Part shown: positions 6,856 to 63,040 of the stretch, one piece after another
Position numbering within the stretch: the stretch's first letter is position 1
Layout: each line of letters opens with the position of its first letter
Origin: Schmidtea polychroa
Taxonomy: Eukaryota
DNA length: 64,000 nt
Reading direction: 5' to 3'
Assembly: GCA_044892525.1 (NCBI GenBank)
Contig: CM097885.1
Location: forward strand, 124,001 to 188,000
Program-made: the position numbers and the translations under genes
The notes under the pieces: model-generated
Seen by the model: only the letters and a program-made list of their open reading frames with translations
What the model was told of the DNA's origin: nothing
The model's database searches: none

Positions 6856-6870
6856 TCAAATACAAGTTCA

Positions 6871-6946
<76 letters not shown>

Positions 6947-7308: not shown

Positions 7309-7386
<78 letters not shown>

Positions 7387-10395: not shown

Positions 10396-10440
10396 AATTA
10401 AATATAATAGGGTTGGGTGGGTCCTCTTTATCCCTTAATT

Positions 10441-11130: not shown

Positions 11131-11169
<39 letters not shown>

Positions 11170-11172
<3 letters not shown>

Positions 11173-11700: not shown

Positions 11701-11721
11701 TATTTTAGATTTTTCATTAAC

Positions 11722-11766
<45 letters not shown>

Positions 11767-12128: not shown

Positions 12129-12201
<73 letters not shown>

Positions 12202-12352
12202 TGAACTTGTATTTGAAATAATAATAATAATAATTTACGACATATTGAGTGTGAGCAGTACCCTTGTGACTTGTTGAATGTGAGTAGTACATTTGTGTGC
12301 AGTACCCATAGGGGGACAGAATATCTTGTCGGATAGACTCGGTGTATATATG

Positions 12353-12406
<54 letters not shown>

Positions 12407-13986: not shown

Positions 13987-14338
13987 TTTCTATCAAAGCC
14001 TTGTGAATGAATGTATTATTTCCGCTCTCAATCTTGATATTATTAAATCCCAACACTGCATCTTTAAACAGAGTATGAAACATGAAATTGTTTGGTAATA
14101 CATCTGCATTGGCATCCAAAACCTTTCTATCTTTATCTACAACCTTGATCTGAACAGTCAATAAAGTATCGTTCAAATCTAAATATTCAGTTTGCGAACC
14201 ATTAATAGAAAACTCGATATCATTTCTACTATCAGTAATTGAATTCATAGGAAAAACTTCCTCAAAGGCCCCAAATTCGATTACCGCTTGAGGCGATGGT
14301 CTATCAAATATACATAATTCGGATTTACCACAAATCAT
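13987..14338 (-). pseudogene. Polinton major capsid protein, N-terminal part
   Basis: KSELCIF..IEFSING..EYLDLNDT..NNFMFHTLF motifs typical of the Polinton MCP N-terminus; ends at the insertion TSD. Confidence 0.92.
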
Positions 14339-14697
14339 TTTGCAAATATAGTTCCATGTCCTTTCATTCGTTTGTTTATACGCGATATTCCATGTCCTTT
14401 ACGTTTTGGAGCTGGGGCTGGGGGCGTATCTTTTTGAAACATACCAGCAACTCCAGGTAGAACCTTCCCTAACTCAGCTAAAGCATTTGTTTTTAGGGAT
14501 GGTAATATTTTCTGTTCATTCATAATCACGTCTTTAGCAGTTTTCATGCCAAAACTACCGATACGTTTAAGAATAGGAAGTGCAAATCTCTCTATTGTTT
14601 TTAACCAACCTGATCCGTACTGTTTACCAATAAAATATGGTAATTCACCGCCAGATTGGCTACCACTATACATACTAATAATATCAGAATTAGCCAT
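14335..14697 (-). CDS. Small Gly-rich basic/amphipathic Polinton virion protein between penton and MCP
   Basis: SQSGG..FIGKQYGSGW..FALPILKRIG motif, GHG repeats, and position between minor and major capsid genes. Confidence 0.7.
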   Translation of the reverse strand: MANSDIISMYSGSQSGGELPYFIGKQYGSGWLKTIERFALPILKRIGSFGMKTAKDVIMNEQKILPSLKTNALAELGKVLPGVAGMFQKDTPPAPAPKRKGHGISRINKRMKGHGTIFAK

Positions 14698-15706
14698 CTA
14701 CTTTACGAAAATGTAGTGTCAAATGAGTTTTTGAGTCTTTTGGGAAGTTTATAAGTTTTCCACTATCATCACGAATATTTATTTCTATATTGTTTATACA
14801 TGAGTTTGAAATTCGTAAATACATGGGATTATCTATATTTATATTGAAAACTTCATCATGTTCATATTTTCCAATCCACACCGATTTCAATAGAGGAACA
14901 CTGGAATCACTAACAATTATAGGCTCAATAATATTAGTATATATGAACATTTGTTGATGATGTTCAAGTATTCTTGGTTTACGTATACCAGCCGATTTTT
15001 CCCGATATTGCTGCTTCTCTAATCCAAGTGTATTTGTCAAATTTTTATCAAATGTAACTTCGCAAATGTCATCATTCAAACTGAATGTAAATAACAAATC
15101 TTTCACAATGTCCAAACTTTTAAATATGTGTGAACAATTGTACTTTAAATATTTAAGTAACACATCAAGTTTATCAATATATAATTCGTCAGCAAAGGTG
15201 AATGATTCTTCAACTTCATTATTATACGACACTGATATTTTGATTTCTTCCCTCATTACACTGTTTGCTTCATATAGATCAAAGCGTAATAAATATTCTG
15301 TTTCCATAACTTCATTTTTCAACTTATTGCAACCCAATCGTTTGGCATCTTCATTATAGTCGATTGTTATTGTAAATGGTTTAAAATCACAACTGATATT
15401 TAATCCATCCTTGTAAAACATAGAGCAATGCGGATCTAATATTTGATTCGGAATATGATATGTTTTATCATAATTACTGATAATAAAGATACCACTACAT
15501 ATTTTCATAGCATTCCTTTTGAAATCAATCTTACATTGACTATAAAATGGGAATGTATTGTACACGAATGTAAAATCTTGCAGTGCAACTTCCCAGTCAC
15601 CATTTAAAGAAATCTGATTCTGGAGATTGACCATGAATTTACTGGCTTGCTTATCTGGATGAATAAGCGGGCAACTATTGCTTGGTAAAATAGTATAAAA
15701 ATTCAC
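14690..15706 (-). CDS. Polinton minor capsid protein (penton, single jelly-roll)
   Basis: FYTILPSNS..LNGDWEVAL at the N-terminus; FIYTNIIEP..VPLLK..INNIEINIRDDSG..LHFRK at the C-terminus. The likely start is now GTG overlapping the upstream stop. Confidence 0.88.
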   Translation of the reverse strand: MNFYTILPSNSCPLIHPDKQASKFMVNLQNQISLNGDWEVALQDFTFVYNTFPFYSQCKIDFKRNAMKICSGIFIISNYDKTYHIPNQILDPHCSMFYKDGLNISCDFKPFTITIDYNEDAKRLGCNKLKNEVMETEYLLRFDLYEANSVMREEIKISVSYNNEVEESFTFADELYIDKLDVLLKYLKYNCSHIFKSLDIVKDLLFTFSLNDDICEVTFDKNLTNTLGLEKQQYREKSAGIRKPRILEHHQQMFIYTNIIEPIIVSDSSVPLLKSVWIGKYEHDEVFNINIDNPMYLRISNSCINNIEINIRDDSGKLINFPKDSKTHLTLHFRKVDG

Positions 15707-45954: not shown

Positions 45955-46530
45955 ATGTCTGGACACCAACGAAATACATGTGGAATTGATTTTCAAACAT
46001 CTTCAAATGCTGATTCATCCAAGAGGTCATATCATGCAAATCCTCCTCCTTCCTGCTTAATGACTGATTTTCAAACATCTTCAAATGCTGATTCATCCAA
46101 GAGATCATATAATGCAAATCCTGCTCCTTCCTGCTTAATGACTGATTTTCAAACATCTTCAAATGCTGATTCATCCAAGAGATCATATAATGCAAATCCT
46201 CCTCCTTCCTGTTTAATGACTGATTTTCGAGCTCGAGTATGTCGTGCACGAATGGGAGCAGCCCGATTTGAATATAAAATTGGATATGAAATGCTTGGTG
46301 CTATAATATGTCGCTCTATTGCGGATATTGATCAACTCTATTCCCAATCGGCTGAGAGGCGACCATTAGGATGTTCAGTGATGGCATTATCTGATAATAT
46401 GCAACTGGACAAAATGACATTATTAAAAATTGATGCAATGTCCTCTTTTGAGGAAAATAAAAGCTTTATGCAGTCGTGTGGACTTAAACATGGTAGCAGA
46501 GCGTGGTTCCGGCTAGCCAGCCGGAACAAG
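45955..46530 (+). CDS. Possible coding exon with three 78-bp (26 aa) tandem repeats; product unknown
   Basis: [26 protein letters not shown] x3. Coding-like composition ends at a candidate donor AAG|GTAATT at 46531. Confidence 0.35.
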
Positions 46531-46848
46531 GTAATTATTATCTATTATAAAATGTCTTTTTTGGTTTTATATATATTATGTAAATATTATGTTTATTATG
46601 TGTTTAATAATATTTTGGTAATTAATATGTTTTATAAAAAAGCGTGTTTGTGGTCACGCATATTATGTATATATTATAATACTTTTGTAAAATTAAACAT
46701 CCTCCCTTCCTTACCGAGCGTGGGAAAGTGCTGCTATGCGCCCCAGCACTCTTTTAAAGGGGGAAGCCAGGGGAACAGGGTAAAGAACAGAGCTGAGTCA
46801 AGGGTGAGGGCAAGCGGGGTAATGGGTTTTGAGTTGCGATGGGAAAGT

Positions 46849-47016
46849 CAAATATTTGTCAAAACTCTTACTGGTAAGACAATTACTCTGGACGTTGAAT
46901 GGAACGACACAATTGAAAAGGTGAAGGGAAATATCCGGGACAGGGAGGGGGTTCCGGTGGATTGTCAGGTGTTGGTGTGCGCAGGGAAGCAGTTAGAAAA
47001 TAAAAGAAGATTGAAT
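46849..47016 (+). pseudogene. Divergent ubiquitin-like domain truncated by the Polinton terminus
   Basis: [50 protein letters not shown] matches ubiquitin residues 2-51; similarity stops at AGTAGT (47017). Confidence 0.85.
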
Positions 47017-47950
47017 AGTAGTGTGTATATATACCCAACCCAAACAGCCCTCCCAACAAAAACATACCTCCATTACGCTTAAACCATTAGAAAAACAACA
47101 TAAAACCTATGTTTTTATAGTATTTTAATCCCATATTTTAAACAACAACCACCCTTAATCTTTAAAGCCTCAAACTCAAAAGCTTAAAACTAAAAAGAGA
47201 ATAGAAAAGAAAATGGCCTTATGAAAAAGTTAGAGGGCTATTTGGGATAGGGCTATATACACACTACTGATCGCAATGAAATTATTATTGATTTTAAATT
47301 ATATAAATTAAAAAATAAATGAAAAATAGTAAAACTGCTCTGAGGGGACAGTGGTATTTTTTTTTTTTTTTTTCACTGTCCCCTCAACAGTTTTTTTGAT
47401 CCGGATCATTTCAACCTCTTTCGTTTATCAAATCTCTTCTAATATACAAGCTGGCCAGACTCATACATCAGAATCAATCCGATAATAGCAGCACGCCTTA
47501 TTATTCGCTTCTCGCTCACGAAGTCGATTTCAACGGCGTTTTAAGCGTGCTGCTCGAAAGTACAAATGAATTCGAAAGCGAATCCGAAAGAGGTCCGAAA
47601 ACAACTGAGAAAGGGATCGATCCGGGGGTGTTCCAAAGACAGGTGGCGATAATTACCGGTTCGCCACCATCACCCGTTTCAATAAATTTTTTTTCATATT
47701 TATGTTTAAAAATAAAATAATAAATAAAATAAATAAAATAAATAAAATAAATAAAATAAAATAAAATAAAATAAAAATAAATAAAATAAAATATAAATCT
47801 AAGATAATCACACTATTATTTTCAAATTTTTAATATTATTTTATGTTGAAAAATAAACTAACCACAGTTAGGATTTGAACCGCTATCCATTTGAACCACG
47901 GTGCCGGTCTAGCCCACTGCGCTATCTAGGATTGGATTTTTGTCATTTTT
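47017..47950 (+). repeat. Left TIR (imperfect)
   Basis: Reverse-complement similarity to ~61390-62360. Confidence 0.88.
47849..47932 (-). ncRNA. Pol III type-2 (tRNA-like) unit in the left TIR
   Basis: A-box TAGCGCAGTGG, B-box GGTTCAAATCC (plus a second GGTTCAAATGG) and a T-rich end. Confidence 0.6.
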
Positions 47951-48178
47951 TAGACTATAAATAATCGATTCAAGTTCTTTAACTCTTTCCTGTAATTGTT
48001 TCATTTTCTTCAATCTTATATCAGCAACATCTACAGCCTTCATATAAAAATGTCGATACTTTTCATTATCTACCATCAACTCTTTGATGTATTCTAATGG
48101 TTCTTCTTCTCTTCTTTTCATTCTCTTATGTTTAACTTCATTCAATTCATTTCGCATTCTTTCTTTTAACTCATCCAT
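47909..48178 (-). CDS. Small coiled-coil hypothetical protein (89 aa)
   Basis: ATG in A-rich context and E/K/R-rich heptad pattern; no family recognised. Confidence 0.45.
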   Translation of the reverse strand: MDELKERMRNELNEVKHKRMKRREEEPLEYIKELMVDNEKYRHFYMKAVDVADIRLKKMKQLQERVKELESIIYSLKNDKNPILDSAVG

Positions 48179-48339
48179 TTTTATAAATATTTTTTTATTG
48201 GATATATTAATTTTTGGTAGCTTAAGTTAAAACGTTTTTGATCTTAAATTTCCAAGAGTTGCCGTTGACCAATCTCCTTAAAAATTTGTACAAGTACTAA
48301 ATCGAGTATGCTGATCAATATTTCGTTAATAAAAATTTG

Positions 48340-48418
48340 AAAAAAAATGACCGAAATGGGATTTGAACCCATTGGTATTGGCAATGCAGTCGAGTGCTAT
48401 TACCACTAAGCTATACTC
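48340..48418 (-). ncRNA. tRNA-derived (Cys-like) Pol III unit
   Basis: GTATAGCTTAGTGGTAATAGCACTCGACTGCA...GGGTTCAAATCCC followed by T8. D-arm, CT-GCA and T-loop resemble tRNA-Cys, but the anticodon and acceptor stems do not close. Confidence 0.65.
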
Positions 48419-48559
48419 AATATGAAATAAGTTGTTAATGTGTGACTATTTATTGATGAAATTAATAATTAATTATTCATTTTCTCGACAACTACCACTC
48501 AGATCCATCTGAAAATTTAAATATATACTAAAATCAGTACGCTGAATCAGATTCCGTTG

Positions 48560-48649
48560 AAAAAAAAATATCGAAACCAAAATCGAAAATTGAACCCGGT
48601 ACTCCCGGTGATAAAATTGAAGCCTATTCCCACTCCGCTATAATGGCTT
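48560..48649 (-). ncRNA. Pol III type-2 (tRNA-like) unit, divergent
   Basis: A-box TAGCGGAGTGG, degenerate B-box GGTTCAATT and T9 terminator. Confidence 0.5.
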
Positions 48650-48703
48650 ACATAATATATTTAATTAATCCTATTGTGTGTGTGTAAATTTTAATATATA
48701 AAA

Positions 48704-49996
48704 ATGAATAATATAAATCTTAAAATTCAAGAAAAAAATAAATTAAATCTTGATTATAATAAAGAATTTACTCATGAAATCAAGAAAAACGATGTACTTA
48801 AAATCTCCCCAACTTCAGGATCTATTGCAAACTTAAATCGTAGGGGTGATATAGTTTTTCAATCTCTTCAAACATCAAACCCTATAGATATTTGTAATGC
48901 TAAATTATATTATAAAATCGAATTAGAAATTGAAGCAAACAAAGATATAACCCTAGAAAATAATTTCTTTCCAAATTTATTCTCCAACATGAGATTAAAA
49001 CTAGGATCATCAGAAATTGAAACTGTTTTGCAGCCGGGAGTATATTCTACAATGTTAAATTTTATTTTGACTGGTTGTGATTATAAAAACGAATATGGTG
49101 AATTAACAGGTTGGATTCCTGATATTAATAAAGGGGATTTAGATAAAGATGGTTTAGATGTAAACCATGGTTACCATAAAAGAGCTGAACTTTATAAATC
49201 TAAAAAATTTGAAGGTTATTTTGAATTAAAACACTTGTTTGGATTCCTTCAAAACTATAATCGTATACTTCATAATGTTTTTATAGAATTCATCTGTAAT
49301 AGAGTAGAAGGTGATAAAAGATTGTTCTATGGAGCTGCAGATACAAAAGCTAAATTAAAATTATCAACACTTGAATTACATATACCTGAATGGACATTAA
49401 ACCCACATTCTGAGATTAAACTCCTTGAAAGATTAAATTCCAACAAGTCTATAAATGTAAATTATTTAAATAGAATCTGTAGTGAATTTAGTATGACAGA
49501 GGGTTCAACATATTCTATAAAGGTAGCAAATTTAGCATACCGACCAAGATATATCTTGATTGGATTCAAAGAAGTAGATTCATCTTTCCAAAAAAATAAC
49601 AACTTGTTTATTCAAAAGATTGGAGTTGATAATTTAAAAACAATCCAAATTCAATTAAATAGTTCTTATTATCCAATAAATAGAATGGAATTTAATATTG
49701 AAAATAATGAAAACATATTCCCATATCTAAATTATATTGAAACATGTTATGATTTCAAAATTGAACCGCAATTAAGTTTAGAAGATTTCAAAAATTTATA
49801 TTCTATATTTTGTATAAATGTTTCAGACCAAGATGATCGCCTAGCCATAAATAATGTTGATGTTACACTTCATGTAACAAAGGATTCTAATTTTAAAGCT
49901 AAAGTATATACATTAATATTAGAAGAAAAGAAAATAGAAATGAAATTATATGGTGGAAAGATTTCAATAATCGAAAATGTTAGGGGAGATTCTTGA
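48704..49996 (+). CDS. Polinton major capsid protein (hexon-like double jelly-roll)
   Basis: 430 aa intact. NNFFPNLFSNMRLKLG..IE..QPG, LKHLFGF..Y, RPRYILIGF and LNSSYYP motifs; element context. Confidence 0.85.
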   Translation: MNNINLKIQEKNKLNLDYNKEFTHEIKKNDVLKISPTSGSIANLNRRGDIVFQSLQTSNPIDICNAKLYYKIELEIEANKDITLENNFFPNLFSNMRLKLGSSEIETVLQPGVYSTMLNFILTGCDYKNEYGELTGWIPDINKGDLDKDGLDVNHGYHKRAELYKSKKFEGYFELKHLFGFLQNYNRILHNVFIEFICNRVEGDKRLFYGAADTKAKLKLSTLELHIPEWTLNPHSEIKLLERLNSNKSINVNYLNRICSEFSMTEGSTYSIKVANLAYRPRYILIGFKEVDSSFQKNNNLFIQKIGVDNLKTIQIQLNSSYYPINRMEFNIENNENIFPYLNYIETCYDFKIEPQLSLEDFKNLYSIFCINVSDQDDRLAINNVDVTLHVTKDSNFKAKVYTLILEEKKIEMKLYGGKISIIENVRGDS

Positions 49997-50025
49997 TATA
50001 ATCCCTGATATTTTAACATTTTAAA

Positions 50026-51435
50026 ATGTCTCTAAATAAATATTGGAGATGTGAAAGTTGTAATTGTCAAGTTACAAGACATCATAAAGCAAGTCATTTA
50101 AAAACTAAAAAACATACAGGAGGTGATCTAATTCCACGAGCTGGAGGCGATTTGCAATCTTCAAAAACAACATCTTCAATATTAAAACCTTTTACTACAG
50201 AAAAATATCCAGGTGAAAGACATTTATTTAAACACAACTATACTGGACCAGGAACACGTCTAGATATTAGATTAGATGAAAATAATAATCCCAAACAAGG
50301 AGAAGAACCAATAAATAGAATTGATCAAGCAGCTTTAAAACATGACATTGCATACAATTCAACAAATCTTAGAGATAGACATGTTGCAGATGTGAATTTA
50401 ATACATGATTTAAATAGTATCCAAAATCCATCAACCCAAGAAAAGATTCAAAGAGCTCTAGTTAAATTAGCAATGAAAGGTAAGATTTTCATAGGCTTAG
50501 GACACAGTCCGATCACCATGGGTGCAAGACTTCCTAGGAAAGCAAAAGATGTTGCTTATAAAAAGATTATCGAACAAGCAGAGATTGAAAGATCCCTCGA
50601 GAGTACAGCCAAGACTAGTTTACAAACCCCAACAGAATCAGAAATAAAATATGCAAAGGAATTACACCATGAATTTAGAAAAAATAAAAAATATTTAAAA
50701 GTTCAAGTACATGAAAAAGATCAAACATGGTCTGCAGATTTAGTCTTTATGCCCAAATCATCAGACCCTGAAAAATATAAAATAATTTTAACTGTAATAG
50801 ATTTATATACAAGATTTGCTTTTGCAAGATGTTTAGAAAATAAAACAGGATATTCTATTACAGAAGCATTTGAAAATATATTTGAAGAAAATCAAAGAAT
50901 CCCAAAATATTTATGGTGTGATAAAGGAACAGAATTTTATAACAAAGTTTTTACAAAGTTTTTAAATGAAAATGATATTAAATTATATTCAACAGAAAAC
51001 GAAGGAAAAGCAGTCGTAGTTGAAAGATTAAATAGAACATTAAAAAATAAAATGTGGAAATATTTTACTGCTATTGGAAAACAAAAATGGAACAATGAAT
51101 TGTTACAAAAGATTGTAAATGAATATAATAATGATGTACATAGTTCTATAAAATTAACACCTTTAAATGCTTCCATGAAGCCTGAAACCATTAAAGTGGT
51201 AAATATTGAAAATGATGTTATTGAAAAACCAAAGTTTAAAATTGGTGACCGAGTAAGAATATTTAAATATAAAAATAAATTTGAAAAAGGATTCACAGCA
51301 AAATGGACAAATGAAATTTTTATTATAAATAAAATACATTATACAACTCCAATAACATATACCATCTTTGATTTAAATAATGAAAAAATATTAGGTAGAT
51401 TTTATAATAATGAACTACAGAAAACAGATTTTTAA
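50026..51435 (+). CDS. Fusion protein: C2H2-like zinc finger + parvovirus-type PLA2 + retroviral-like (rve) integrase
   Basis: CESC..HLKTKKH; NYTGPG..IDQAALKHDIAY..AD; WSADL..IDLYTRF..CDKGTEF..VERLNRTLK (DDE intact); ends GRFYNNELQ with no chromodomain. Confidence 0.93.
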   Translation: MSLNKYWRCESCNCQVTRHHKASHLKTKKHTGGDLIPRAGGDLQSSKTTSSILKPFTTEKYPGERHLFKHNYTGPGTRLDIRLDENNNPKQGEEPINRIDQAALKHDIAYNSTNLRDRHVADVNLIHDLNSIQNPSTQEKIQRALVKLAMKGKIFIGLGHSPITMGARLPRKAKDVAYKKIIEQAEIERSLESTAKTSLQTPTESEIKYAKELHHEFRKNKKYLKVQVHEKDQTWSADLVFMPKSSDPEKYKIILTVIDLYTRFAFARCLENKTGYSITEAFENIFEENQRIPKYLWCDKGTEFYNKVFTKFLNENDIKLYSTENEGKAVVVERLNRTLKNKMWKYFTAIGKQKWNNELLQKIVNEYNNDVHSSIKLTPLNASMKPETIKVVNIENDVIEKPKFKIGDRVRIFKYKNKFEKGFTAKWTNEIFIINKIHYTTPITYTIFDLNNEKILGRFYNNELQKTDF

Positions 51436-51446
51436 GTCGACAAGCC

Positions 51447-52238
51447 CTAAAACAAACTTTTCCATATTTCAGCTTCTTCTCTATCCAAATAAATATAATT
51501 ATATTTTTCTTTCCAATGATTATCAACAAACATATCAAACATATTCTTATCAGGTTCAACATTTGAAAATAAATCATTATAAATCATATTCTTATCACGG
51601 CGATCTAATTTAAAAAATATAAAACAATTGGAATTATTTCTTATTGAATTTTTATCTAAAGCATAATATGTTTGAGATATATAAATAACATTACAATTAT
51701 TATGTCGACCTCGTGTAAAGTAACTCTTTTGAATCTCTTGATTTTTCATATTAACAACATCATCAAATATAACTAGATTCTTTTTATCTTTAGGAAGTAA
51801 ATCACAATGTATAACATCTTCAGGTTTATTAGAGAATAAAACTTGAATTGCCTCCTGCCCTTCTTCACAAATATAATCATTTTTATTACTAATATCTGAT
51901 TCTAAAATCTTTTCCTTATACCAATCAACCATATCACAAGGTTGAAAAACTTCTTCAGGACACCTATGTTGATTTTTAAAAATATCAATTATTGCTTTTT
52001 TAGTTAATTTATTTTCAAATCCACATTTCAAAAGTTGTAATTCTGGTTGCTTTATGGTTGTAGAATAAAAGATAAAATTATTATAATCTAAAAAATCATC
52101 TTCAAGTAACATTCTCAAAACAAGTACATTCTTTCCACATCCAGAAGAACCAACAATTAATAATCTAAAATTATCAGGAAATACTTTATTATTAAATTTA
52201 CTCTTATGTCTATTTAAAATTGGTTTCCAAATATCCAT
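51447..52238 (-). CDS. A32/FtsK-like genome-packaging ATPase
   Basis: Walker A GSSGCGKN, Walker B LVIFDD, and FTRGRH..IYISQ..IRNN motifs. Likely start is MDIWKP at 52238. Confidence 0.92.
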   Translation of the reverse strand: MDIWKPILNRHKSKFNNKVFPDNFRLLIVGSSGCGKNVLVLRMLLEDDFLDYNNFIFYSTTIKQPELQLLKCGFENKLTKKAIIDIFKNQHRCPEEVFQPCDMVDWYKEKILESDISNKNDYICEEGQEAIQVLFSNKPEDVIHCDLLPKDKKNLVIFDDVVNMKNQEIQKSYFTRGRHNNCNVIYISQTYYALDKNSIRNNSNCFIFFKLDRRDKNMIYNDLFSNVEPDKNMFDMFVDNHWKEKYNYIYLDREEAEIWKSLF

Positions 52239-52253
52239 TTTGTTTATTATAAA

Positions 52254-52847
52254 ATGACAACTGAAGAATCTTTGCAAGAATTAATAAATTCAAATAAAAA
52301 TAAATCAGTAGTAATTGATGGTAAAAAATATTTTATTGGAAAACATGTAAAAGAACAAGTTAGAGCGAAGCTCCACGAAGCTAAAGAAGGTGGCATTCTT
52401 CCATTAGCTGCTTTAATACCTGCAATCATTGCTGGTTTATCAGGTGCTGCTGGAATAGCTGGAGGAATTGCAATTACAGTTCAAAAAGCTAAAGAATCTC
52501 AAAAGACAGACCTAGAAAAAGAAAAACTACAAACTGAAATCGATTCAATGAAGAAGGTAGGGCAAGCTAAAGGGGGAGTGTCCGTTGGAAAGGGTCTCTA
52601 TCTTAATCCATATGAGGGGAGTCGGCAAAAGTCTCAGGGCAAAGGTCTCTATCTTGATCCTTATAAAGGTAGAGGTTTAAATGATTTTTTAAAAAATCAA
52701 ATTTCTACATCTGAATCTTTATCTTTAAAAGATAAAGAAGATTTAAAAAAAATATGTAAATCTTTAAAGAATGGATGTCTTTGTAAAACTAAAAATGGCA
52801 AAGGTTTATACTTGAAGCCCTTTCCAACGGATCCTTTACCAAAATGA
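52254..52847 (+). CDS. Gly-rich hydrophobic/basic virion core or membrane-active protein
   Basis: EGGILPLAALIPAIIAGLSGAAGIAGG segment and three GKGLYL repeats, which resemble protease processing sites. Confidence 0.65.
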   Translation: MTTEESLQELINSNKNKSVVIDGKKYFIGKHVKEQVRAKLHEAKEGGILPLAALIPAIIAGLSGAAGIAGGIAITVQKAKESQKTDLEKEKLQTEIDSMKKVGQAKGGVSVGKGLYLNPYEGSRQKSQGKGLYLDPYKGRGLNDFLKNQISTSESLSLKDKEDLKKICKSLKNGCLCKTKNGKGLYLKPFPTDPLPK

Positions 52848-52869
52848 TACCATTTTTAATACCATAAAA

Positions 52870-53739
52870 ATGGTATATGAAGAAAGACTAGCACTTTTAA
52901 AAAAATTACAATCAGAACAAGATAAATATAATAAAAAAGATACAAGTCAACATGCTGAATCTTTAATATTAAATGAGGTAATAACACAACAACAGGGGCC
53001 AACAATTAAAGCTATAAAAGGATTAAATGAGCAAGCAAAATTTAAAGAGTTAGAAGATGGAGGAAGTCCCCATGAACAAAAAATAAAAAAACTAGAGTGG
53101 AAGGAAGAATCCAGTGAAAGTCATTCTGAAAGAAATCAAAGAAAACGCAGAAGAATTTCTAATGCGGAAGAAGAAGAAGAAATGTTTTTAAAAACAAAAC
53201 CTCTTAAAGTTGATCCTAAAATTAGAGATGATTTACCTCCTTCAATTAGACCCACATTTAATACTAATACTGAAGGATATCAAATAATAACAATTAATAA
53301 ACAAAACTTTACTTTATATTCAAATTCAGAAAATAAATCACGTATTCATTCACAAAATGTTTATAATAATGAATATTTAGACTTTGAATTTACAGATGAT
53401 TTTTATAAATTACTTTGTGGATATTCTTCAGATGATCTTGAAGAAATTAAAAAATATTTAAATTTAATAAGATTAATAAGAGCTGGTTCTAAAGCAAAAT
53501 ATATTCAAGATTTAAAGAATTATTTAGATAAAAATGAAAAGGGTTATGTTGTTACAGAGGGAGAGGGATTAATTAGTGAAGGAAATCCCATCAATCTTTT
53601 TATTGAATTAAGAAAACTATTAGCTGCAAGGAAAGCAGGACATAATAATTTAGATTCTGATATTTTAAAGATTTCTAAAGATTTGTTAAAACAAGGAATA
53701 ATTTCAAAAGATAAATTTAATAAGTATACGAAGTTATAA
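52870..53739 (+). CDS. Polinton hypothetical protein (289 aa)
   Basis: Intact ORF. C-terminal GEGL..ELRKLLAARKAGHNN resembles a motif I recall from Polinton structural-module proteins. Confidence 0.7.
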   Translation: MVYEERLALLKKLQSEQDKYNKKDTSQHAESLILNEVITQQQGPTIKAIKGLNEQAKFKELEDGGSPHEQKIKKLEWKEESSESHSERNQRKRRRISNAEEEEEMFLKTKPLKVDPKIRDDLPPSIRPTFNTNTEGYQIITINKQNFTLYSNSENKSRIHSQNVYNNEYLDFEFTDDFYKLLCGYSSDDLEEIKKYLNLIRLIRAGSKAKYIQDLKNYLDKNEKGYVVTEGEGLISEGNPINLFIELRKLLAARKAGHNNLDSDILKISKDLLKQGIISKDKFNKYTKL

Positions 53740-53791
53740 ATACGAAGTTATAAAATACGTAGTTTTAAAATACGAAGTTTTAAAATACAAA

Positions 53792-54256
53792 ATGACTCCT
53801 TCAATATTAGATTTTTTAAAAACATTTGGAATAAATGCAAAAACAAATTTTGATTTAAAAGATTATGCAAATTATTTAAATTTAAAAATTAAAATATTAA
53901 TGAATGATGAATTATCAAGTCTGGAGAGTCCCCTGAATATAATAATCAATTATCAAAATTCAAATGAAAAAGGATCTCATTGGGTTTGTATATATAAGAA
54001 ATCTATCTACTTTGATTCTTTTGGGATTAAACCTACTAAAGAAGTTGAAGATTATCTCTTGAGGGGTTCTCCGATTGATTCCCCAAATGGTTATACTTTT
54101 AACTCTTTACAAGTTCAACCTTTGAATACTAAAATATGTGGTATTTTAAGTTTATATGTTTTGTATAGATTGAATAAGGGAGAGGGAAAGGGGCATACGC
54201 AGGATTTTGAATCTATAATTCAAGAAATTTATAATGATCTAGAATCTCTACTATAA
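53792..54256 (+). CDS. Adenain-like cysteine maturation protease
   Basis: GSHWVCIY..YFDSFG..QVQ..ICG catalytic motifs. Confidence 0.92.
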   Translation: MTPSILDFLKTFGINAKTNFDLKDYANYLNLKIKILMNDELSSLESPLNIIINYQNSNEKGSHWVCIYKKSIYFDSFGIKPTKEVEDYLLRGSPIDSPNGYTFNSLQVQPLNTKICGILSLYVLYRLNKGEGKGHTQDFESIIQEIYNDLESLL

Positions 54257-54355
54257 GGATTTTTACTATAAGGATTTTTACTATATGAATTTACTACTAA
54301 AGAAATGGAGCTTCACAACCCTCCGGAAGATAATTTAAAAAAAATGGTAAACATA

Positions 54356-55071
54356 ATGTCAGATAAATATTCAAGAACTTTATCTATAAATTCAAAAGAA
54401 TCAGAGTTTACTATAAACTTTCAAGATTCAATTAAATTAGATCAAAATTTAAATTATGAATTGGGGCTATTATGGTTTTGTGCTTATAATACTATTTTTA
54501 TTATATAACTAAAGATAATAATAAATTTACTATTCAAACTCGTGATGGGCATAAACCAGAAATTATAACAATAGAACCTGGGGCATATGAGATAAAAGAT
54601 TTAAATGATATACTTTCTAAAAAAACAAATGAAGGTATTAAAATTAAAATGGATATACCAACTTCAAAATGTGTAATGACTTTGAAGAATATAAAAATTA
54701 GTTTTTTAGATAATTGTTTCTTTCACACAGTTTTAGGATTTAAACCTATGGATATAACAATAAAAGAAGATAAAATAATAACATCAGAACATATTATAAA
54801 AATAATAAATACAAACACAATAAATATTCATTGCGATTGTATAACAGGTTCTTATAATAATGGTAAACAAACAAATGTTTTATATTCCTTTCCCTCAAAC
54901 ACAGTTCCTATGGGATATAAAATAGTTGAAAGAATGAATCCTCCAAATTATTTACCTTTATGTAGAAAATATATAATGGATATTAATTTTAAAATTCTTA
55001 ATCAAGAAGGAGAATTGATTGATTTTAATGGAGAAGAGATTTCAATGTATTTACATTTGAAACAGGTTTGA
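54356..55071 (+). pseudogene. Minor capsid protein (penton), frameshifted near 54505
   Basis: FQDSIKLD..YELGL..YNTIF in one frame continues as TKDNNKF..IEPGAYEIKDLN..INIHCDCITGSYNNG..YLP..NQEGELIDFNGE in another. Confidence 0.85.
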
Positions 55072-55095
55072 AGATTCATTTTAAATTATTAATAA

Positions 55096-56106
55096 ATGAG
55101 TTCTTATATTCCTTGTAATAGAGGTGGTGGAACAATAAAAACAGGGTTTAATACAGAAGAAATATTAACTTTAACAGAAAATAAATATATTAATGAAAGA
55201 GGTGATTCAATGAAGGGTGATTTAATTTTAAATGGACACAAGATAAAAGAATTATCTTTTCCAACTGATGAAGCTGATGCAGTTAATAAGAAATATGTAG
55301 ATGGTGTTAAAAAATATACTGATTTAACAACAACAAGAATTGAAAGTTCATTAACAACAAAAATTGATTCAATGGAATCAAAGCTTAATAATATCGAACA
55401 ACGATTTAATGATAAATTTGACAAGTTACAAAGTCTGTTAACTGAACAAGTTGTAAAGTTAAATACTGCTATATTAAATTCTAAAGATAAACAAATTATG
55501 AATACTAAATTTAATGCAATATATAATATAATAAATGAGATGATTACATCATTTAATAAAAGAATTTCAAATTTAGAGTCTCATGGAACACACATTAACA
55601 CCACACATAGTATTAGAAAAAGAGCTGCTGAATTAGAACAGAATAAAACATTATTACCCCATACATATAAACATTTTATAGAACCAAGTTTAATAACAAC
55701 AAACAGTAAAGAATGGGGTGTTTTTATGGTTGTAAAAATTATTGATCCTTATTTCTTTTTGTTTGATGATGATAATGAAAGAATGAAATGGTTTGTGAAA
55801 TGTGATTATAATAGTAAGCTTGAAAAGGGTGATGTTATAATGACTAGTTATGATTTACCACACGGAGATTGGTATGTTAATACTCATTCACATGGACTAC
55901 ATAAAGTTAAAAGTAAGAATATTCATTTTTCTAGTTCACTTGTACAATATATAGATTTAATATTTTATGAAAAAAAGGTTGATGTTGATGAAGTTCGTAA
56001 AGCATTGAGAGAATTGTATAAAGATATCCTCTCAACAAGAGTTTCTTTTGATATCCGAGTATTGGTGCCAGATGGTGCTAAGAAGAATAAAGTCTTATTT
56101 TTTTAA
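55096..56106 (+). CDS. Fibre/spike-like protein with trimeric neck motif and coiled coil
   Basis: GDSMKGDLILNGHKI..PTDEADAVNKKYVD motif as in tail-fibre/adhesin necks, followed by heptads; located right after penton. Confidence 0.6.
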   Translation: MSSYIPCNRGGGTIKTGFNTEEILTLTENKYINERGDSMKGDLILNGHKIKELSFPTDEADAVNKKYVDGVKKYTDLTTTRIESSLTTKIDSMESKLNNIEQRFNDKFDKLQSLLTEQVVKLNTAILNSKDKQIMNTKFNAIYNIINEMITSFNKRISNLESHGTHINTTHSIRKRAAELEQNKTLLPHTYKHFIEPSLITTNSKEWGVFMVVKIIDPYFFLFDDDNERMKWFVKCDYNSKLEKGDVIMTSYDLPHGDWYVNTHSHGLHKVKSKNIHFSSSLVQYIDLIFYEKKVDVDEVRKALRELYKDILSTRVSFDIRVLVPDGAKKNKVLFF

Positions 56107-56114
56107 TTATTAAA

Positions 56115-56711
56115 ATGGAAGAAGTAAGAGAAGAAAAAATTTACGCAGAATTGAGATCATCAGGATATTATTCTTCCAGCGCCTCGGCTCCCACAGAACT
56201 TGAAATTATGAGAGTAAAAGAATTTAAATCAGAAACCTTACATTTACAAGATTTATTAAAGCATTATAAAAAAATTAAAAATAGATGGAATAAAGGGAAT
56301 ACAGTTTTAAAAGTTATAGGTTATTCTTTAGGATTTGCATCTGCAATATTAACAGTTATTTTACCCATAACTTTACCAGTTGTTACTCTTGCACCTGTAA
56401 TACTTGGAAGTATTTCTGTGGCTGATGGTTTCTTAACTGAAATAGTTTCATTATCTTATACTTCTAAAAAGAAAAGTTTATATAGAGAAGTTTGTTTATC
56501 AATAGAATTAGGAATCTCTAAATTATTTTTATTTCAATTAAAAGCTTTGGAAGATGGAATCCTGACAGACGAAGAAATAATGAAATCAAATCAAATAATA
56601 CAAGATATAAAGAATGAGGTTATAAGATTAAAAAGGGAGGGCATGGTGGCTAATGTTATAAGTAATAAAAAAACATCTCGAGAAAAATGGTTAAAGAATT
56701 CTTACTTATAA
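56115..56711 (+). CDS. Two-hydrophobic-segment membrane protein of Polinton type
   Basis: Hydrophobic hairpin around residues 63-105 and a KALEDGILTDEE motif. Confidence 0.65.
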   Translation: MEEVREEKIYAELRSSGYYSSSASAPTELEIMRVKEFKSETLHLQDLLKHYKKIKNRWNKGNTVLKVIGYSLGFASAILTVILPITLPVVTLAPVILGSISVADGFLTEIVSLSYTSKKKSLYREVCLSIELGISKLFLFQLKALEDGILTDEEIMKSNQIIQDIKNEVIRLKREGMVANVISNKKTSREKWLKNSYL

Positions 56712-56805
56712 AATGGGTGTATTTTTAAAAAAGTAGATCAGGTTGCTATAGTTGCTTAAATTAATTGTCGACATTTTATTATTAAAAAATTAAATATCGT
56801 TGGTT

Positions 56806-59800
56806 TCAGTTATGGTTGAAAGCCAACCTATGAATCATTAATTTATGATCTTTAAATTCTTTATCACTTAGACCTTTTATATATTCAGGATCAGTATTAA
56901 AATATTTAAGTTCTAAACATATAGGATTAAAAACTTGAGAATATAAAGGTTTCTCGATTTCTCTCTCGGGATAAATAATTTCAACATTATAAATATCAAG
57001 ATCAGTAATCTTTGTATCATATAACTTATTCAACTTTTCTAGATTTTTTATTATAGGGATTAAATTATTTCCAATAGGTAGAGTTGTCTTTAAATCACTT
57101 AGTATGAATCTCTTATCATCATAATTTGATAATGATACTTTTTGAGATTCTATCAAGTGAATATCATGGTTTTCACTTTTAAGTTGATGTATTTCATCAA
57201 TTTTATCTTTATGATTTGGATTCAATGTATCTATATAATCTTGATGAGAAAGATTCTTTGCAACCACTCTCTGTATTCCTTTACATCTGTTATCCTTTAC
57301 AGGTTTTTCTTCTTTAGGAAATATAGGATATCTATGTGTTATGGTTTCTTCTGTTTCTGGAGTTTTAAATATAAATGATCTAGTTATAAATTCAGGGTTT
57401 CTAAATGTTTCGTATGAATATTGTTTAGCACGAATAAATATTCCATTTTCTATAGGAGTAAAAGGTTTTTCATCTTTAAACGAAAATAGTTCTCCAGATG
57501 AATTTATTAAATTTGAAAGTATAGGATTTTCTTTCATATCTTTTTGTAAATCATGAGTTCTTATTGTTAAAAACATTGAATCTGTATCCATTGCATGCAT
57601 TGATATATTTGCTCCGTATATAGGTTGTAAGATGTTATAATATGTTTCATACATTTGTAATTTTGAAAGTTCTAAAATTGTAAACCCTATAAATATTGGT
57701 TTGTTATATGTTTTCTCATAATTTTTTAATTCTACTGCAGTAAGATTTTCAGAAAATACTTGTGCGTTTTTAAATGTAGGCTTTCCTAGCATGCGATTAT
57801 AACGCTTAATATCTTTGGTAGTATTTGTTAGGAGTTCAATATGAGTATATTTATCAACATTCTCCATTGTTTTCCCAAAGACTGAATTGTTTAAAAGTTT
57901 ATAATTATTATCTTTAAAAAGATTACCTCTCTTTTTGCAATGTTTCGACACCTAATGTTCTCCTCGATAAAAGCTTTCATGAATGGAGCTTGTTTAAATC
58001 TTATGACACTATGAACTTTAGGGTTAGAGATAAAATTGGAGGAGTCTATAGTGACAAAGATAAAACCTTCGATCTGTTTGATCACAAAGAAGTTTCATTG
58101 TTGGAGGTTTATCTTGTGAGATTTGCCATTCAGAAAGTTCGTTGATATCAATCTTTCTTCTTATGGGAGCTAAAGGAAAATATCTTGTTCCTGATTTTAT
58201 ATCATCTGGATAGTCGAGGTCGCATTCTATAAAGTAACCTATTGGAGAATCTTTCGATGTTGAAAGTATTTCTTTCATAAGGTCATCTGTTGGGTTCTCT
58301 ATTTCAGTGAAATCACTCATTGGTAAATATTGAGTCATAATTCCTGAATATAAAGCTGTTGCATCTATATAAAGTATAAATATAGGATTTTTCATTGTTT
58401 CTAATAATTCTTTTAATTCCTCATTGTTAATTTTCATATATGGATCATCAGGGTGTTTAGATAGTCTTCGGCTAGTAGTTATTGCATTTCTAGCTTTTAT
58501 TTCTCTATTCCCCATTACTGAAGAGACTCCTCCTCTAATGTTTGTTTTAATTTGGTTAAACATATCGAGGTTAGTTAAAAGATCTATAATTTTATCACCT
58601 TCTTCTATATTTGAAGTCCAAATGGTATATAACATAGTATCCCAAGCTAAAGAGGGTGCAGTTATATAATTATAAGGTTTAAGAACAAAAGATTTTGTAA
58701 ATTCTTCAAAGCAATCTGCTAGAATATAAACATCCAAGGATAAATACATACTTGTATATTCTCCTAAAGTTTTACACTTGAATAATTCCCACATTTTATT
58801 TGCTCGAGAATATTCTTGATTTGTAATATGATTTTTTTGAAGTTGTGAATAGAAATCTTCTTGGCTAGGAAGACTTGTTTCATTATATCTTTCAAACGAG
58901 TCAACATAGTCATAAGGATATATTCCTTTTGCTAAACATGTAGGATATTCTTCTAGAGGAATATTATTTTTTTCCAAGAATTCTCGAGTGATTTTAAAAT
59001 TTTCTGGTTTCATTGTTTTTGCTACTGCATCTAAAGACATTTGGAGAAAGTTTAACGAGTCTATAAATTTTAATTTTCCATATTCAATTGATTTATATTT
59101 TTCCTTTGTTAAGCCGATAACTTTGAAAGAGTTTTTAGCATTTGCTGCGAGGTGTTTAATAAATAGATGTATGTCATATCCAAAAAGATTATGAAATATA
59201 ACAGGTATAAATTTAGGAGTATGGCAATTAAGATTGCAATTTTTATGAGCTGCTCCTCAATAATTATTTTCCTTTTTTAAATGATCATGATCTATAAATT
59301 TTTCATCAGGAAGAATATTCTGTTTACATATCCAACAGTTGGAAGTATTTTCATATTCTTGTTGTTGTTGATTAGAAATATTTTGAGGATACTTTGTTTT
59401 TAATATTTTAAATATTTCATGTTCTAGATCATTTATATTTTTAGTAAAATGATTCAAGACTTCTTCAGGGGTACCTCCTAGAATTGAATATTCTCTAGAT
59501 TCTATGAGTTCAGGATAATTACTTTTAAATAATAATTTATAAGCAGATGGTAATTGTTTAGTTTTTTTAACACTATTAGGTTTATTTCTTTTTCTTAGAA
59601 AGGCTTTCATCCTCTCTGGTTTCATCTTCTCTCCTGAGGAGTTCCATAAATCCATGAGTTTATTTTTTTCTATTATTTTTAAATATTGATAAACCAAATC
59701 TTGTTTATGGTTTATAGATTCAAAGTCACCATAAAGAACTCCAACTGTTTGTAGTAAATTTGAAAAGTTTTTAAAATACATCTTGGGATTATTAGGCATT

Positions 59801-61110
59801 TTAATTAAAGCTGGATCATCTTTTTCACAAAATCTTGTATGTTTAATCATAGAGTTTTTAATTGTTGAATAATGAAGACATCTTTTACATGTTCCTCCTC
59901 CACTAGTTGGATTCTCTGGAGATGTAAAAGCTTGAAAGTTTTTTATTAAAACATAATGTTGATTATTTTCTTGTTCCAAGATTAAAAGATATATCTCGTT
60001 GTCCTGTGCTCCGTTATCCTTGGTTCCACTATCTGAAATATAAATTGGAATAATTTCTTTCCATATAACATGTTCATAAATATTAAGTTTAAGATTATTT
60101 AATTTTTCAAATTCTGGAATGTCTTCTAGTTTCATTGGGTGTTTGAATCCTTTGGGAAATATTAATTCATTTTCATATTGTTTGTATTTTGAAACTCTTT
60201 GGGGATTTGTTGCTTGAGGATGTAAATGTGCAAGTATTGACCAGATGAAACATTTGTTATCATTATTCTGTACATTTATAACATTTTTAGATTTAAAGGG
60301 TGTAGGAATATAAGATTTAGGATTGGGTGGTAATCCTCTCCAATAATCAATCACTAAAGTTTGGAAAGAGTTGAATACTAAGTTTGAATCTCCTAATTCA
60401 TTTTCTACTTCCTCTTGTTTTGCTTCTGCTGCTTTAATTATTTCTTTGATGGTTTTATCAAATCCTTTAATTGAAAATAAATATTTAAAAGGTATTCCAA
60501 TTTCAACATCTAAGGGTGTTGTCTTTTCTTCTGCTCCTCGCCAGTATTTTGCTTTGATTATAATTTTATATTTTATAACATTATACCTTGTCGGTTTATA
60601 ATTTTTTAAAGCTTCAGTGAAAGAATTTTTAATATTTTTTTTATTTTTATTTATATATTCTCCAGGAGTTGCAGGCCCATTAATTTTTAATTGAAATTCA
60701 TCTATATGATTAAAATTATCCCAGTTATATTTTTCTCTTTCAACATTATCAGGCTCTCCTTCTGAATGACATTCCTCATCGTCAGAATTTTGTTTTTTAT
60801 TTTTACATTCTTTTATATGTTCTAAATAATAGAAATTTAGTTTTGTTGAAAAGTTACAATGAGGACATGTAAATATTTCTCTATTTTTCCCGATACAATT
60901 TTCAAAATGTTTATTATATCCAGAATGTAGAAATCTTCCTTTACATTTAAGACAAAGTTTTGAATTTGTATCATTAAGATTATTTTCTTTTAATAAATGA
61001 GCTTTCGATTTTAAGTGAGAAATTAATCCAGTTTTATTTTTAAAAACTTTATTGCAAATATTACAATTCACTTTTAGAAAAAAATTTTTTATTGGATACC
61101 CTGTTTTCAT
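56806..61110 (-). pseudogene. pPolB with N-terminal zinc fingers; one premature stop and two frameshifts
   Basis: CNIC..H..H, YGDFES, DHDH, FHNLFGYD, KGIYPY, YIDATALY, KLLNNSVFGKTMEN, DTDS, YDDKR. TGA at 59257; frame changes near 58025 and 57930. Confidence 0.95.
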
Positions 61111-61176
61111 TTTATTTTTTAAGATTTATATTATTCATTTTTTATAATAAAAATTTAAAAAATGACAAAAAATCCA

Positions 61177-61260
61177 AACCTTGATGGCGCAGTGGGCTAG
61201 ACTGACACAGTGGTTCAAAATGCTAGCGGTTCAAATCACATCTGAGGTTAGTTTTTTTTT
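61177..61260 (+). ncRNA. Pol III type-2 (tRNA-like) unit
   Basis: A-box TGGCGCAGTGG, B-box GGTTCAAATC, T9 terminator; ends pair (AACCTTGATG/CATCTGAGGTT). Confidence 0.6.
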
Positions 61261-61389
61261 CAACATAAAATAATATTAAAAATTTGAAAATAATATTGAA
61301 AATAGTGTGGGTATCTTATATTTATAAAGTACTTGTATATTTTATTTTATTTATTTTATTTTATTTTATTTTTTATAAATTAAAAATTA

Positions 61390-62360
61390 AAAAAATGACA
61401 AAAATTCAAACCTTGATGGCGCAGTGGGAATAGACTGGCACAGTGGTTCAAATGGATAGTGGTTCAAATCACATCTGAGGTTAGTTTTTTTTCAACATAA
61501 AATAATATTAAAAATTTGAAAATAATAGTGTGGGTATCTTATATTAATAAAGTACTTGTATATTTTATTTTATTTTATTTTATTTATTTTATTTATTTTA
61601 TTTATTTTATTTATTTTATTGATTTTATTGATTTTATTTATTATTTTATTTTTTAAACATAAATATGAAAAAACAAATATTGAAACGGGTGATGGTGGCG
61701 AACCGGTAATTATCTCCACCTGTCTTTCGAACACCCCCGAATCGATCCCGGTTATGTGCACATTTATTTCTCAGTTGTTTTCGGACCTCTTTCGGATTCG
61801 CTTTCGAATTCATTTGTACTTTCGAGCAGCACGCTTAAAACGCCGTTGAAATCGACTTCGTGAGCGAGAAGCGAATAATAAGGTGTGCTGCTATTATCGG
61901 ATTGATTCTGATGTATGAGTCTGGCCAGCTTGTATATTGGAAGAGATTCGATAAACGAAAGAGGTTGATAAATAAAAAAAAATGATCCGGATCAAAAAAA
62001 ACTGTTGAGGGGACAGTGAAAAAAAAAAAAAAATACCACTGTCCCCTCAGAGCAGTTTTACTATTTTTCATTTATTTTTTAATTTATATAATTTAAAATC
62101 AATAATCTGATAAAGATCAAATAGCCCTCTAACTTTTTCATAATGCCATTTTCTTTTCTATTCTCTTTTTAGTTTGAAGTTTTTGAGTTTGAGGCTTTAA
62201 AGATTAAAACAGTTAGAGTCATTAAGGGTGGTTGTTTTCAAAATATAGGGTTAAAATACTATAAAAGTATAAGTTTTAGGTTGTTTTTCTAACAGCTTAA
62301 GTGATTTGGAGGCATCTTTTTGTAGGGGGCTGTTTTAGTTGGGTATATAACCACACTACT
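61390..62360 (-). repeat. Right TIR (imperfect)
   Basis: Reverse-complement similarity to 47017-47950; ends ACTACT. Confidence 0.88.
61409..61492 (+). ncRNA. Pol III type-2 (tRNA-like) unit, tandem duplicate in the right TIR
   Basis: Same boxes, terminal stem and T8 terminator; part of a ~230 bp direct duplication. Confidence 0.6.
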
Positions 62361-63040
62361 CATTATATAAGGTTTATATTTTCAAATTATGTAAATAAAA
62401 GTGTATTTTTATCAAAAAGGTAAGTTAAAGCTTATAATTTTAAATAAAGTAAATTAAAGAATATGTTTGGTAAACAATGGCTATATTTTAAAATTAAGTA
62501 AATTAAGGGATAAATCTATAAATTAAGTATATAACTGGCTATATTTTAAAATTAAGTAAACAAGGGTTACTTTTTCAAAATTAAGGGATAAATTTACTAA
62601 TATGGTAAATTAAAGGCTAAATATTTGAATTAAGTAAGGTAAGGGTTATATTTTAAAATTAAGAAACGTTTAGGCTGTATTTTAAACCGGAGGTTCGTGC
62701 TCCCGTGGGTCACTGACTACGTACTCTGTAATTTCCAAATTTTACATTTTGAATTTCTAATGAGTTTTTAGTTTGATTTTAGTTGAACTTCATTTGATCT
62801 TAGACCATTTATTGTTAGAAGAACCCTCAATGTTCATAAAAATAATTAGGTTTCGGGACTTTCATTATCGTAAAACATAGTTGTTCGTAAATATTTAGTC
62901 ATTTGTGGAAGTAAAATAAATTTAAAGTAAAATTTAAAAAATGACTAAAATAACCAATAAAATCATTGTTAAATATAATTAATTACATATTTGTTACTAT
63001 TTATACTATATTAAATCAAATTCTTAACCAAACGATAACA

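Follow-up and report, generated by a model that had tools for sequence, protein, structure and literature searches.

Does a Polinton-like provirus in the genome of Schmidtea polychroa carry small RNA genes of its own for RNA polymerase III (Pol III), or are the tRNA-like units near its left end the remains of something else? The question is raised by a 64-kb stretch of contig CM097885.1 (assembly GCA_044892525.1, forward-strand positions 124,001 to 188,000; in the following called the window), in which a sequence-only reading had described three minus-strand units, each with an A box, a B box and an oligo-T run, and had likened them to the virus-associated (VA) RNAs of adenoviruses. We regard it as evenly balanced whether these units, together with a fourth one, form an element-borne cluster of degenerate tRNA-derived Pol III type-2 units that resembles the TMERs, or tRNA-miRNA-encoded RNAs, of murine gammaherpesvirus 68; both transcription by Pol III and function are inferred here. 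Established by the analysis were the anatomy of the units, their fixation in one Polinton family, the absence of a dispersal like that of short interspersed nuclear elements (SINEs) and a strand-specific, conserved predicted structure of the unit-4 region.

A motif scan recovered the three units far above chance, all of them on the minus strand, 79-90 nt long and facing outward, as had been described. The A-box consensus TRGCNNAGTGG has 21 matches in the window against 0.24 expected, a number reached by none of 100 shuffles; three of these are the units, three lie at the right end of the Polinton and 15 in a tandem array. The strict B box GGTTCRANNCC matches twice, in units 1 and 2, against 0.23 expected (two matches were reached in 3 of 100 shuffles). 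From A to B box the offsets in units 1, 2 and 3 are 43, 44 and 44 nt, which is the spacing found in tRNAs. Judged by sequence, units 1 and 2 thus have everything that defines a putative type-2 Pol III unit, namely A and B boxes 30-60 nt apart and an oligo-T run, while unit 3 appears to fall short on account of an incomplete B box and internal T4 runs (48616-48613, 48589-48586 and 48582-48579), and unit 4 on account of degenerate boxes (Table 1).

Apart from the boxes, the likeness to tRNA is largely confined to one unit. ARAGORN called no tRNA in the window or in four other loci, and Rfam gave no match in the window at its gathering score (29 bits for tRNA, RF00005). In E-value mode over 47000-48800 the sole tRNA match was unit 2 (26.7 bits, E 0.007), and units 1, 3 and 4 had no Rfam match at E<=10. 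By the criteria of RF00005 and ARAGORN the units are not eukaryotic tRNA genes, and they cannot decode. That units 1 and 3 keep their boxes despite an otherwise lost tRNA likeness argues for a cluster of Pol III units. Pairwise identity among units 1-3 is 50-62%, with the matches mostly in the boxes and T-runs. The cluster comprises four outward-facing units, of which units 3 and 2 are diverged tandem modules: stretches of about 230 bp around them are 59% identical and have a CACACA motif upstream and a GATCAGC..TTTAGTA motif downstream in common. The descriptions of the units as mutually divergent, as having kept their boxes and lost their cloverleafs, and as sharing flanking motifs in the case of units 2 and 3 all held up.

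Their placement at the left Polinton end needs correction in part. The units do lie in the left end region; because the true left end is at 47017, they are 830-1630 bp inside the element, and units 1 and 4 are found at both ends because they are inside the terminal inverted repeat (TIR). Just inside the right TIR, at 61156-61377, there is a 233-bp tandem copy of the unit-1 module, and in many copies of the element unit 1 has doubled A- and B-like boxes.

To see whether the units belong to the element or spread by themselves, copies were collected from the 781-Mb assembly. With a 1.1-kb query at least 40 full-length matches of 93-100% identity were obtained, and all 29 other loci that were fetched proved colinear through units 1-3 (identity 92.7-97.3%), with homology beginning at 47013-47024 in 23 of them. 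The terminus was located in 21 loci; all start with AGTAGTGTG, and their flanks are unrelated save for one duplicated pair. The fetched copies are independent insertions of one family, hereafter family A, in which the units occupy the same positions. A target-site preference near tRNA genes or repeats was considered and dropped, since the left flanks of the copies are mutually unrelated. When the genome was counted with 34-mer patterns at up to 3 mismatches (reversed-pattern controls gave 0), the unit-3 head was found 2121 times, the unit-2 head 3251 times and the body behind unit 4 1442 times on each strand (2884), the equality of the strands being as expected of a sequence borne by TIRs. A search for the capsid domain gave 2527 first-look candidates; all 126 that were scored passed the cut-off, and most are open frames of ~430 aa without stops. 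The unit-head counts are of the same order as this capsid-gene count. A further DNA search gave 661 candidates for unit 2 and 727 for 48225-48315, a segment that lies inside the unit-2 module and hence is no independent control.

Twelve unit-3 sites, sampled at intervals along the chromosome-1 list, were then inspected. Eight have the full family-A context and two belong to family A with a deletion or truncation; one adjoins other Polinton-like DNA, and one, with an extra module, is of unsettled context. No clean solo copy was among the twelve, in a search that reached relatives down to about 85% identity, and stand-alone copies with target-site duplications of their own, the hallmark of a tRNA-derived SINE, were not found. 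The unit-4 region as a SINE was likewise rejected on its counts and symmetric strand distribution. The colinear copies, the counts near that of the capsid gene and the lack of a clean solo site bear out that the units are Polinton-borne and no host SINE. They are a built-in, vertically inherited part of the non-coding stretch that leads from the left terminus to the capsid gene, in thousands of copies. The copies L049 (G000:C1:11511876-11512909) and L046 depart from the usual module number, either by a loss, with 276 bp missing between units 3 and 2, or by a gain of one module; by their sequence they show unequal exchange between the unit-2 and unit-3 modules.

A related family B, of which three copies were compared, shares 88-89% nucleotide identity in the capsid gene and 68-72% in the right half, and its TIR is only 285 bp long. 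It has all four units, at the left end only and in an order that differs from family A: the terminus is followed by unit 2, unit 3, the structured region with unit 4, an AT repeat, unit 1 and then the capsid gene. Over the unit 2/3 segment it is 90-92% identical to the window, and its copy of unit 2 scores 28.7 bits as an Rfam tRNA. In three sister families, whose capsid genes are 86-91% identical, a TIR-like end precedes the capsid ATG by only ~50 bp, and no cassette, no A box and no tRNA-like match was found. A scan of viral contigs with the capsid protein found no relative.

Unit-2 sequence is also present in the tandem array at 21000-45530, which consists of 19-20 monomers of ~1245 bp, each with a ~725-bp block of 17-nt sub-repeats. 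Each of 19 monomers holds a ~290-nt copy of the unit-2 module (~80% identical) in family-B arrangement, within a fragment of ~290-340 bp that is homologous (80%) to the unit-2 module and the inner TIR edge of a family-B Polinton. The consensus A box is kept in 15 of the 19 copies, and the homology reaches 77 nt upstream of unit 2. An abundant satellite carrying unit 2 was ruled out, as no more than 21 array-type units were counted in the genome and 19 of these belong to this array; by its sequence the array reads as an old end fragment of a Polinton that was amplified locally and not as a dispersed satellite.

The strongest RNA structure lies just outside the coordinates that had been noted, in the TIR. 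Unit 4 had been overlooked there, as had the incomplete B box and the internal T4 runs of unit 3. Behind the unit-4 head, whose B-like box follows the A-like box after 42 nt, about 300 nt of very strong strand-specific structure are predicted. On the outward strand 373 nt fold with a minimum free energy (MFE) of -138.2 kcal/mol (z -8.0), and the inward strand with -109.3 (z -5.5); the right-arm copy, folded as 61670-62080, gives -133.8 (z -7.3). The outward strands have 15 (left) and 22 (right arm) G.U pairs vs 3 and 5 on the inward strands, and the GC content of the region is 0.44 vs 0.27 for the element. The inward strand has runs of T17, T7 and T8, which would stop Pol III, so that Pol III could cross the region outward only; the outward strand has a single T4 before the terminal T4/T5. 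Behind the ~270-nt body, at ~47408, there is an A-run of variable length.

To analyze conservation of this fold, a consensus was computed with RNAalifold from both arms of families A and B, using 39 distinct copies of 88-100% identity. It has 103 pairs, 99.4% of them paired. Where stem pairs have common variants, pairing is kept in 7 of 7, twice by a change of both partners from GC to AU, for which intermediates with GU are present; rare stem variants are mostly disruptive (8 canonical vs 23 not), and in controls with the partner slid by 1-3 columns 41-48% of the cells were paired. The modelled folds show a strand-specific, conserved structure of the unit-4 region, which appears to be a better candidate for a VA-like structured RNA than units 1-3.

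Assembled contigs of four sequencing runs were also compared with the element. Runs X1, X2 and X7 are RNA by guess and the kind of X3 is not on record; the contigs show neither strand nor ends, and their depth cannot rank parts of the element. Contigs of the three guessed-RNA runs cover the structured region (e.g. X7 record 26, 47391-47576), where the summed contig depth in X1 and X2 is 3708-15451, the highest of a 4.5-kb stretch though no basis for ranking; X3 depth is roughly even within the element. We take this cover as a weak hint of transcription. Contigs of the guessed-RNA runs cover units 2 and 3 scarcely or not at all, which says nothing about them because short Pol III RNAs are lost in ordinary libraries. 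A variant letter at 47466 makes up 100% of the depth in X1, 40% in X2 and 2% in X3, and a variant at 47479 is also enriched in X1 and X2. Each changes a G.U to an A-U pair in the long hairpin of the outward strand, and their enrichment in X1 and X2, taken by guess for RNA, may be due to a few expressed copies.

If the cluster works as such units do elsewhere, TFIIIC and TFIIIB would recognise the boxes, and Pol III would then make RNAs of ~75-90 nt from units 1 and 2 and perhaps unit 3. Unit 4 would drive a longer RNA of ~360 nt, made of long G.U-rich helices and a 21-bp hairpin before T-runs. Adenoviruses and herpesviruses encode Pol III RNAs (VA RNAs, Epstein-Barr virus-encoded small RNAs and TMERs) that manipulate host RNA sensing, and the TMER cluster is at the left end of murine gammaherpesvirus 68. 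By analogy the TMERs would be the closest counterpart of the units described here, and the VA RNAs a looser one. What the TMERs and the units described here share is that several Pol III type-2 units, each with a tRNA-like 5' head, are clustered in the genome of a DNA virus; further shared traits are multiplied boxes (here the doubled boxes of unit 1) and hairpins behind the head, here long, placed before T-runs and found behind unit 4 only. In the passages of PMC8223928 that concern them, hairpins come after the TMER heads, the A box of TMER promoters is triplicated and overlapping, and the primers used for TMERs derive from a "left-end plasmid". In contrast to TMERs, units 1-3 have no hairpins, ~200 nt of helices stand between the unit-4 head and its terminal hairpin, the sequences are unrelated and the host is not a vertebrate-virus system. 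The comparison is one of sequence anatomy.

As for the proposed VA-RNA analogue, the Pol III-type boxes and terminators of the units stand. VA RNAs too are Pol III genes with internal A and B boxes, in a virus lineage related to Polintons, and long helices are also present in the unit-4 region. VA RNAs I and II (RF00102) are described in the relevant part of PMC6599070 as highly structured and double-stranded RNA-like, whereas units 1-3 are unstructured (z -0.25 to -2.25), the structured candidate has ~360 nt vs ~160 nt, and Rfam gave no VA match. The units do not belong to the VA RNAs as defined by an RF00102 match and a ~160-nt double-stranded RNA-like fold. Antagonism of PKR, a role as decoys in RNA interference and an insulator role are speculation for the units. 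To our knowledge, PKR is not expected outside vertebrates.

Several observations weigh against a functional Pol III cluster. The folds of units 1-3 are not better than those of shuffled sequences (z -0.40, -2.25 and -0.25), and scanning windows of 120 nt gave no significant structure in them. The B box of unit 3 is incomplete, and its three T4 runs could stop Pol III at ~30-70 nt; in unit 4 the A-like box departs from the consensus at 2 of 9 specified positions and the B-like box at one, and a T4 follows only ~80 nt in. Between families A and B units and spacers are conserved equally, so that no unit-specific constraint is visible, and in the comparison with the array copy conservation looks higher in the downstream flank than in unit 2 (by eye, uncounted). 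Conservation within the family has little power, because the copies are young and too alike. Module number varies, with a one-module deletion at one of the 12 sampled sites and an extra module at another. Because three sister families do without it, the cassette is an accessory of some lineages and dispensable for a Polinton. On the side of structure, the consensus was taken from the same alignment that was used for counting pairs, a bias in its favour, and in an antisense re-fold control pairing was also kept in 5 of 6 common variants. The sole hint of transcription comes from unstranded contigs of guessed-RNA runs.

Foremost among the rival readings is one that we take seriously without favouring it, in which tRNAs were captured and units 1-3 are what is left of them as they decay. 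The units would be pseudo-tRNAs without function, captured or carried by the ancestor of families A and B, whose boxes survive as the parts most common to tRNAs and because the families are young. Such an origin would agree with the near-threshold scores of unit 2 (26.7 and 28.7 bits), the sister families without a cassette, the equal conservation of units and spacers, the variable module number and the internal T4 runs of unit 3. It would also agree with what is reported from polinton-like viruses and virophages, which belong to the same virus realm: the sections of PMC12220804 on this subject give 558 tRNA genes across the collection, called by ARAGORN or Rfam and read as codon compensation; the tRNA-type units described here, in contrast, fail both programs and cannot decode. 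Against decay stands that the A boxes of units 1 and 3 and the B box of unit 1 match every specified position at the exact tRNA offset, and that each unit keeps its terminal T-run though units 1 and 3 are otherwise un-tRNA-like. Also against decay is that the cassette is kept in thousands of copies and in two families of different gene order, and decay leaves the strand-specific, pairing-preserving structure beside unit 4 unexplained.

The remaining readings are less likely. The activity of tRNA genes as insulators is established, and the units could act at the DNA level as TFIIIC sites, that is as boundaries of the "extra TFIIIC" or tRNA-gene type that shield the element or the capsid promoter, the RNA product being irrelevant. 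We think this unlikely: it would explain why the boxes are kept and the RNA structure of the units is not, and it suits where the units are, namely ahead of the first gene and behind the terminus at the left end, and for family A within the TIR of either end, but a pure binding site has no need of the T-run terminator that every unit carries, and in family B all units are at one end. More improbable is that the modules and the structured region are cis-acting DNA of a virus-like genome, serving in packaging or protein-primed replication in the manner of adenovirus packaging repeats or by folding of single-stranded DNA. The modules are repeated, G.T wobble could stabilise single-stranded DNA, and the position between TIR and first gene at the left end only (the whole cassette in family B, units 2 and 3 in family A) would fit, yet tRNA-type boxes at tRNA spacing with T-runs are left unexplained and the sister families manage without the cassette. 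Least probable is that host tRNA-derived SINEs inserted in an ancestral copy and the boxes-only state is inherited from them, for although kept boxes on a lost cloverleaf, oligo-T or A-rich ends and the length-polymorphic A-run in the unit-4 region are SINE-like, the units are not independently dispersed and are carried by a DNA element whose spread needs no Pol III, the unit heads number in the order of Polintons and not in tens of thousands, the unit-4 body was counted exactly as often on one strand as on the other, the A-type Polinton context was found at 10 of 12 sampled sites with no clean solo insertion at the identities covered by the search, and the array homology upstream of unit 2 is unlike a SINE 5' end.

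Table 1. Positions of the units, their copies and the neighbouring features of the Polinton-like provirus (window coordinates; Tn, run of n T).
Feature	Position	Strand	Description
Unit 1	47849..47932	-	Degenerate tRNA-like, in TIR; A box TAGCGCAGTGG (47924-47914); doubled B box: GGTTCAAATCC (47881-47871) and second, B-like box GGTTCAAATGG (47897-47887); T5 (47853-47849)
Unit 2	48340..48418	-	tRNA-derived, GCA at anticodon-loop position; A box TAGCTTAGTGG (48413-48403); B box GGTTCAAATCC (48369-48359); T8 (48347-48340)
Unit 3	48560..48649	-	A box TAGCGGAGTGG (48640-48630); incomplete B box GGTTCAATTTT (48596-48586); T9 (48568-48560); three internal T4 runs
Unit 4	47600..47683	-	Weaker tRNA-like head in TIR; A-like box TGGCGAACCGG; B-like box GGATCGATCCC (47623-47613); T4 (47601-47598)
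Unit-2 module	48214..48495	-	Upstream CACACA motif, unit, downstream GATCAGC..TTTAGTA stretch
Candidate structured RNA	47322..47683	-	Unit-4 head, long helices over ~200 nt, terminal 21-bp hairpin whose loop is A-rich, T4/T5 runs (predicted)
Right-arm copy of structured region	61678..62072	+	Outward strand
Unit 1, right-end copy a	61177..61258	+	A box TGGCGCAGTGG; B box ending CA, not CC
Unit 1, right-end copy b	61409..61490	+	Tandem duplicate of copy a, period 233
Left TIR	47017..47951		84.3% identity to 62360-61390 over 1005 columns; terminus 5'-AGTAGTGTG
Right TIR	61390..62360		Counterpart of left TIR
Major capsid protein gene (double jelly roll)	48704..49996	+	PF21738, E 2.4e-26; divergent from units
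Small ORF, 89 aa	47909..48178	-	Stop codon inside unit 1, directly after A box

The provirus that carries the units spans 47017-62360. Its size of 15.3 kb, with TIRs of ~940 bp, follows from the inverted repeats that join 47017-47951 to 62360-61390. The termini, AGTAGTGTG...CACACTACT (AGTAGTG...CACTACT), were compared with those expected of a Polinton, namely long TIRs, 5'-AG..CT-3' ends and a 6-bp target-site duplication, the right flank being that of the window copy. Its flanks, TTGAAT (47011-47016) and CATTAT (62361-62366), do not match as a target-site duplication; the ends may come from different insertions, or the flanks may have been altered since. The right end resembles the left end minus 745 bp, with the small open reading frame (ORF), unit 2 and unit 3 gone, and the same capsid-start motif directly adjoins unit 1 there. 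Contig joints of this 745-bp-removed form are present in runs X3 and X7.

In a Pfam scan of 16 ORFs the element was found to have three genes that mark a Polinton/Maverick, namely those for a double jelly-roll capsid protein, an A32-type ATPase (PF04665, 2.7e-9) and an rve integrase (PF00665, 7.1e-12), the last in an ORF that also has PF08398, a PLA2-like domain. A family B DNA polymerase was not found: none of the 16 ORFs matches PF03175, and searches of PDB and PHROG were also empty. On the minus strand at 56806-61110 there are three successive ORFs of 381, 338 and 617 aa without a Pfam polymerase match. Neighbours of the 617-aa ORF in a protein atlas, as found by a language-model look-alike search, include clusters with 15-36% of members annotated DNA_pol_B_2 and 17-59% Endonuclease_7, and zinc-finger clusters too. 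The three ORFs may be a divergent or split protein-primed polymerase, the language-model result being a lead only. The 89-aa ORF, rich in lysine and glutamate and placed between unit 2 and unit 1 on the strand of the units, shows few differences across 29 copies of family A and is absent from family B.

Some features beyond the provirus were also recorded. An open frame at 45955-47082 on the plus strand, which contains a 78-bp triple repeat and matches Pfam families of ubiquitin and proteasome subunits, enters the Polinton terminus by 65 nt; it probably consists of host exons disrupted or abutted by the insertion. At 5233-13854, 205-bp tandem repeats (5233-5791) and 21/64-bp repeats (5830-6477) have inverted counterparts at 13291-13854 and 12546-13257, which suggests a second large element with long composite TIRs. 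A minus-strand frame of 853 aa at 2-2560 leaves the window at its edge and has a weak Endonuclease_7 match; it may be the polymerase-region gene of an adjacent Polinton copy, and several further Polinton copies are present within 120 kb.

No paper that describes genes for Pol III RNAs in a Polinton or Maverick turned up in full-text literature searches (supplements excluded), and papers with both "Polinton" and "RNA polymerase III" look, by title and abstract, like general transposon reviews. If the units are transcribed, the habit of making decoy or guide RNAs with Pol III would reach back to transposon-like relatives of adenoviruses. A bolder form of this, which we consider doubtful, is that a Polinton lineage has a TMER-like Pol III RNA system of its own with four promoters, that the ~360-nt RNA feeds or jams the small-RNA silencing of the host, and that the lineage owes part of its success, seen in the 2121-3251 unit heads of the genome, to this cassette. 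Transcribed units would also offer a tractable case, since nearly identical copies exist by the thousand, the cassette is rearranged in one sister family and others lack it, and the strand-specific, covarying TIR structure predicted here is a concrete RNA candidate that is open to testing. Were the units only relics, they would still be a record of how tRNA-derived modules were picked up, multiplied and shifted into TIRs, and of how they even came to found a local tandem array.

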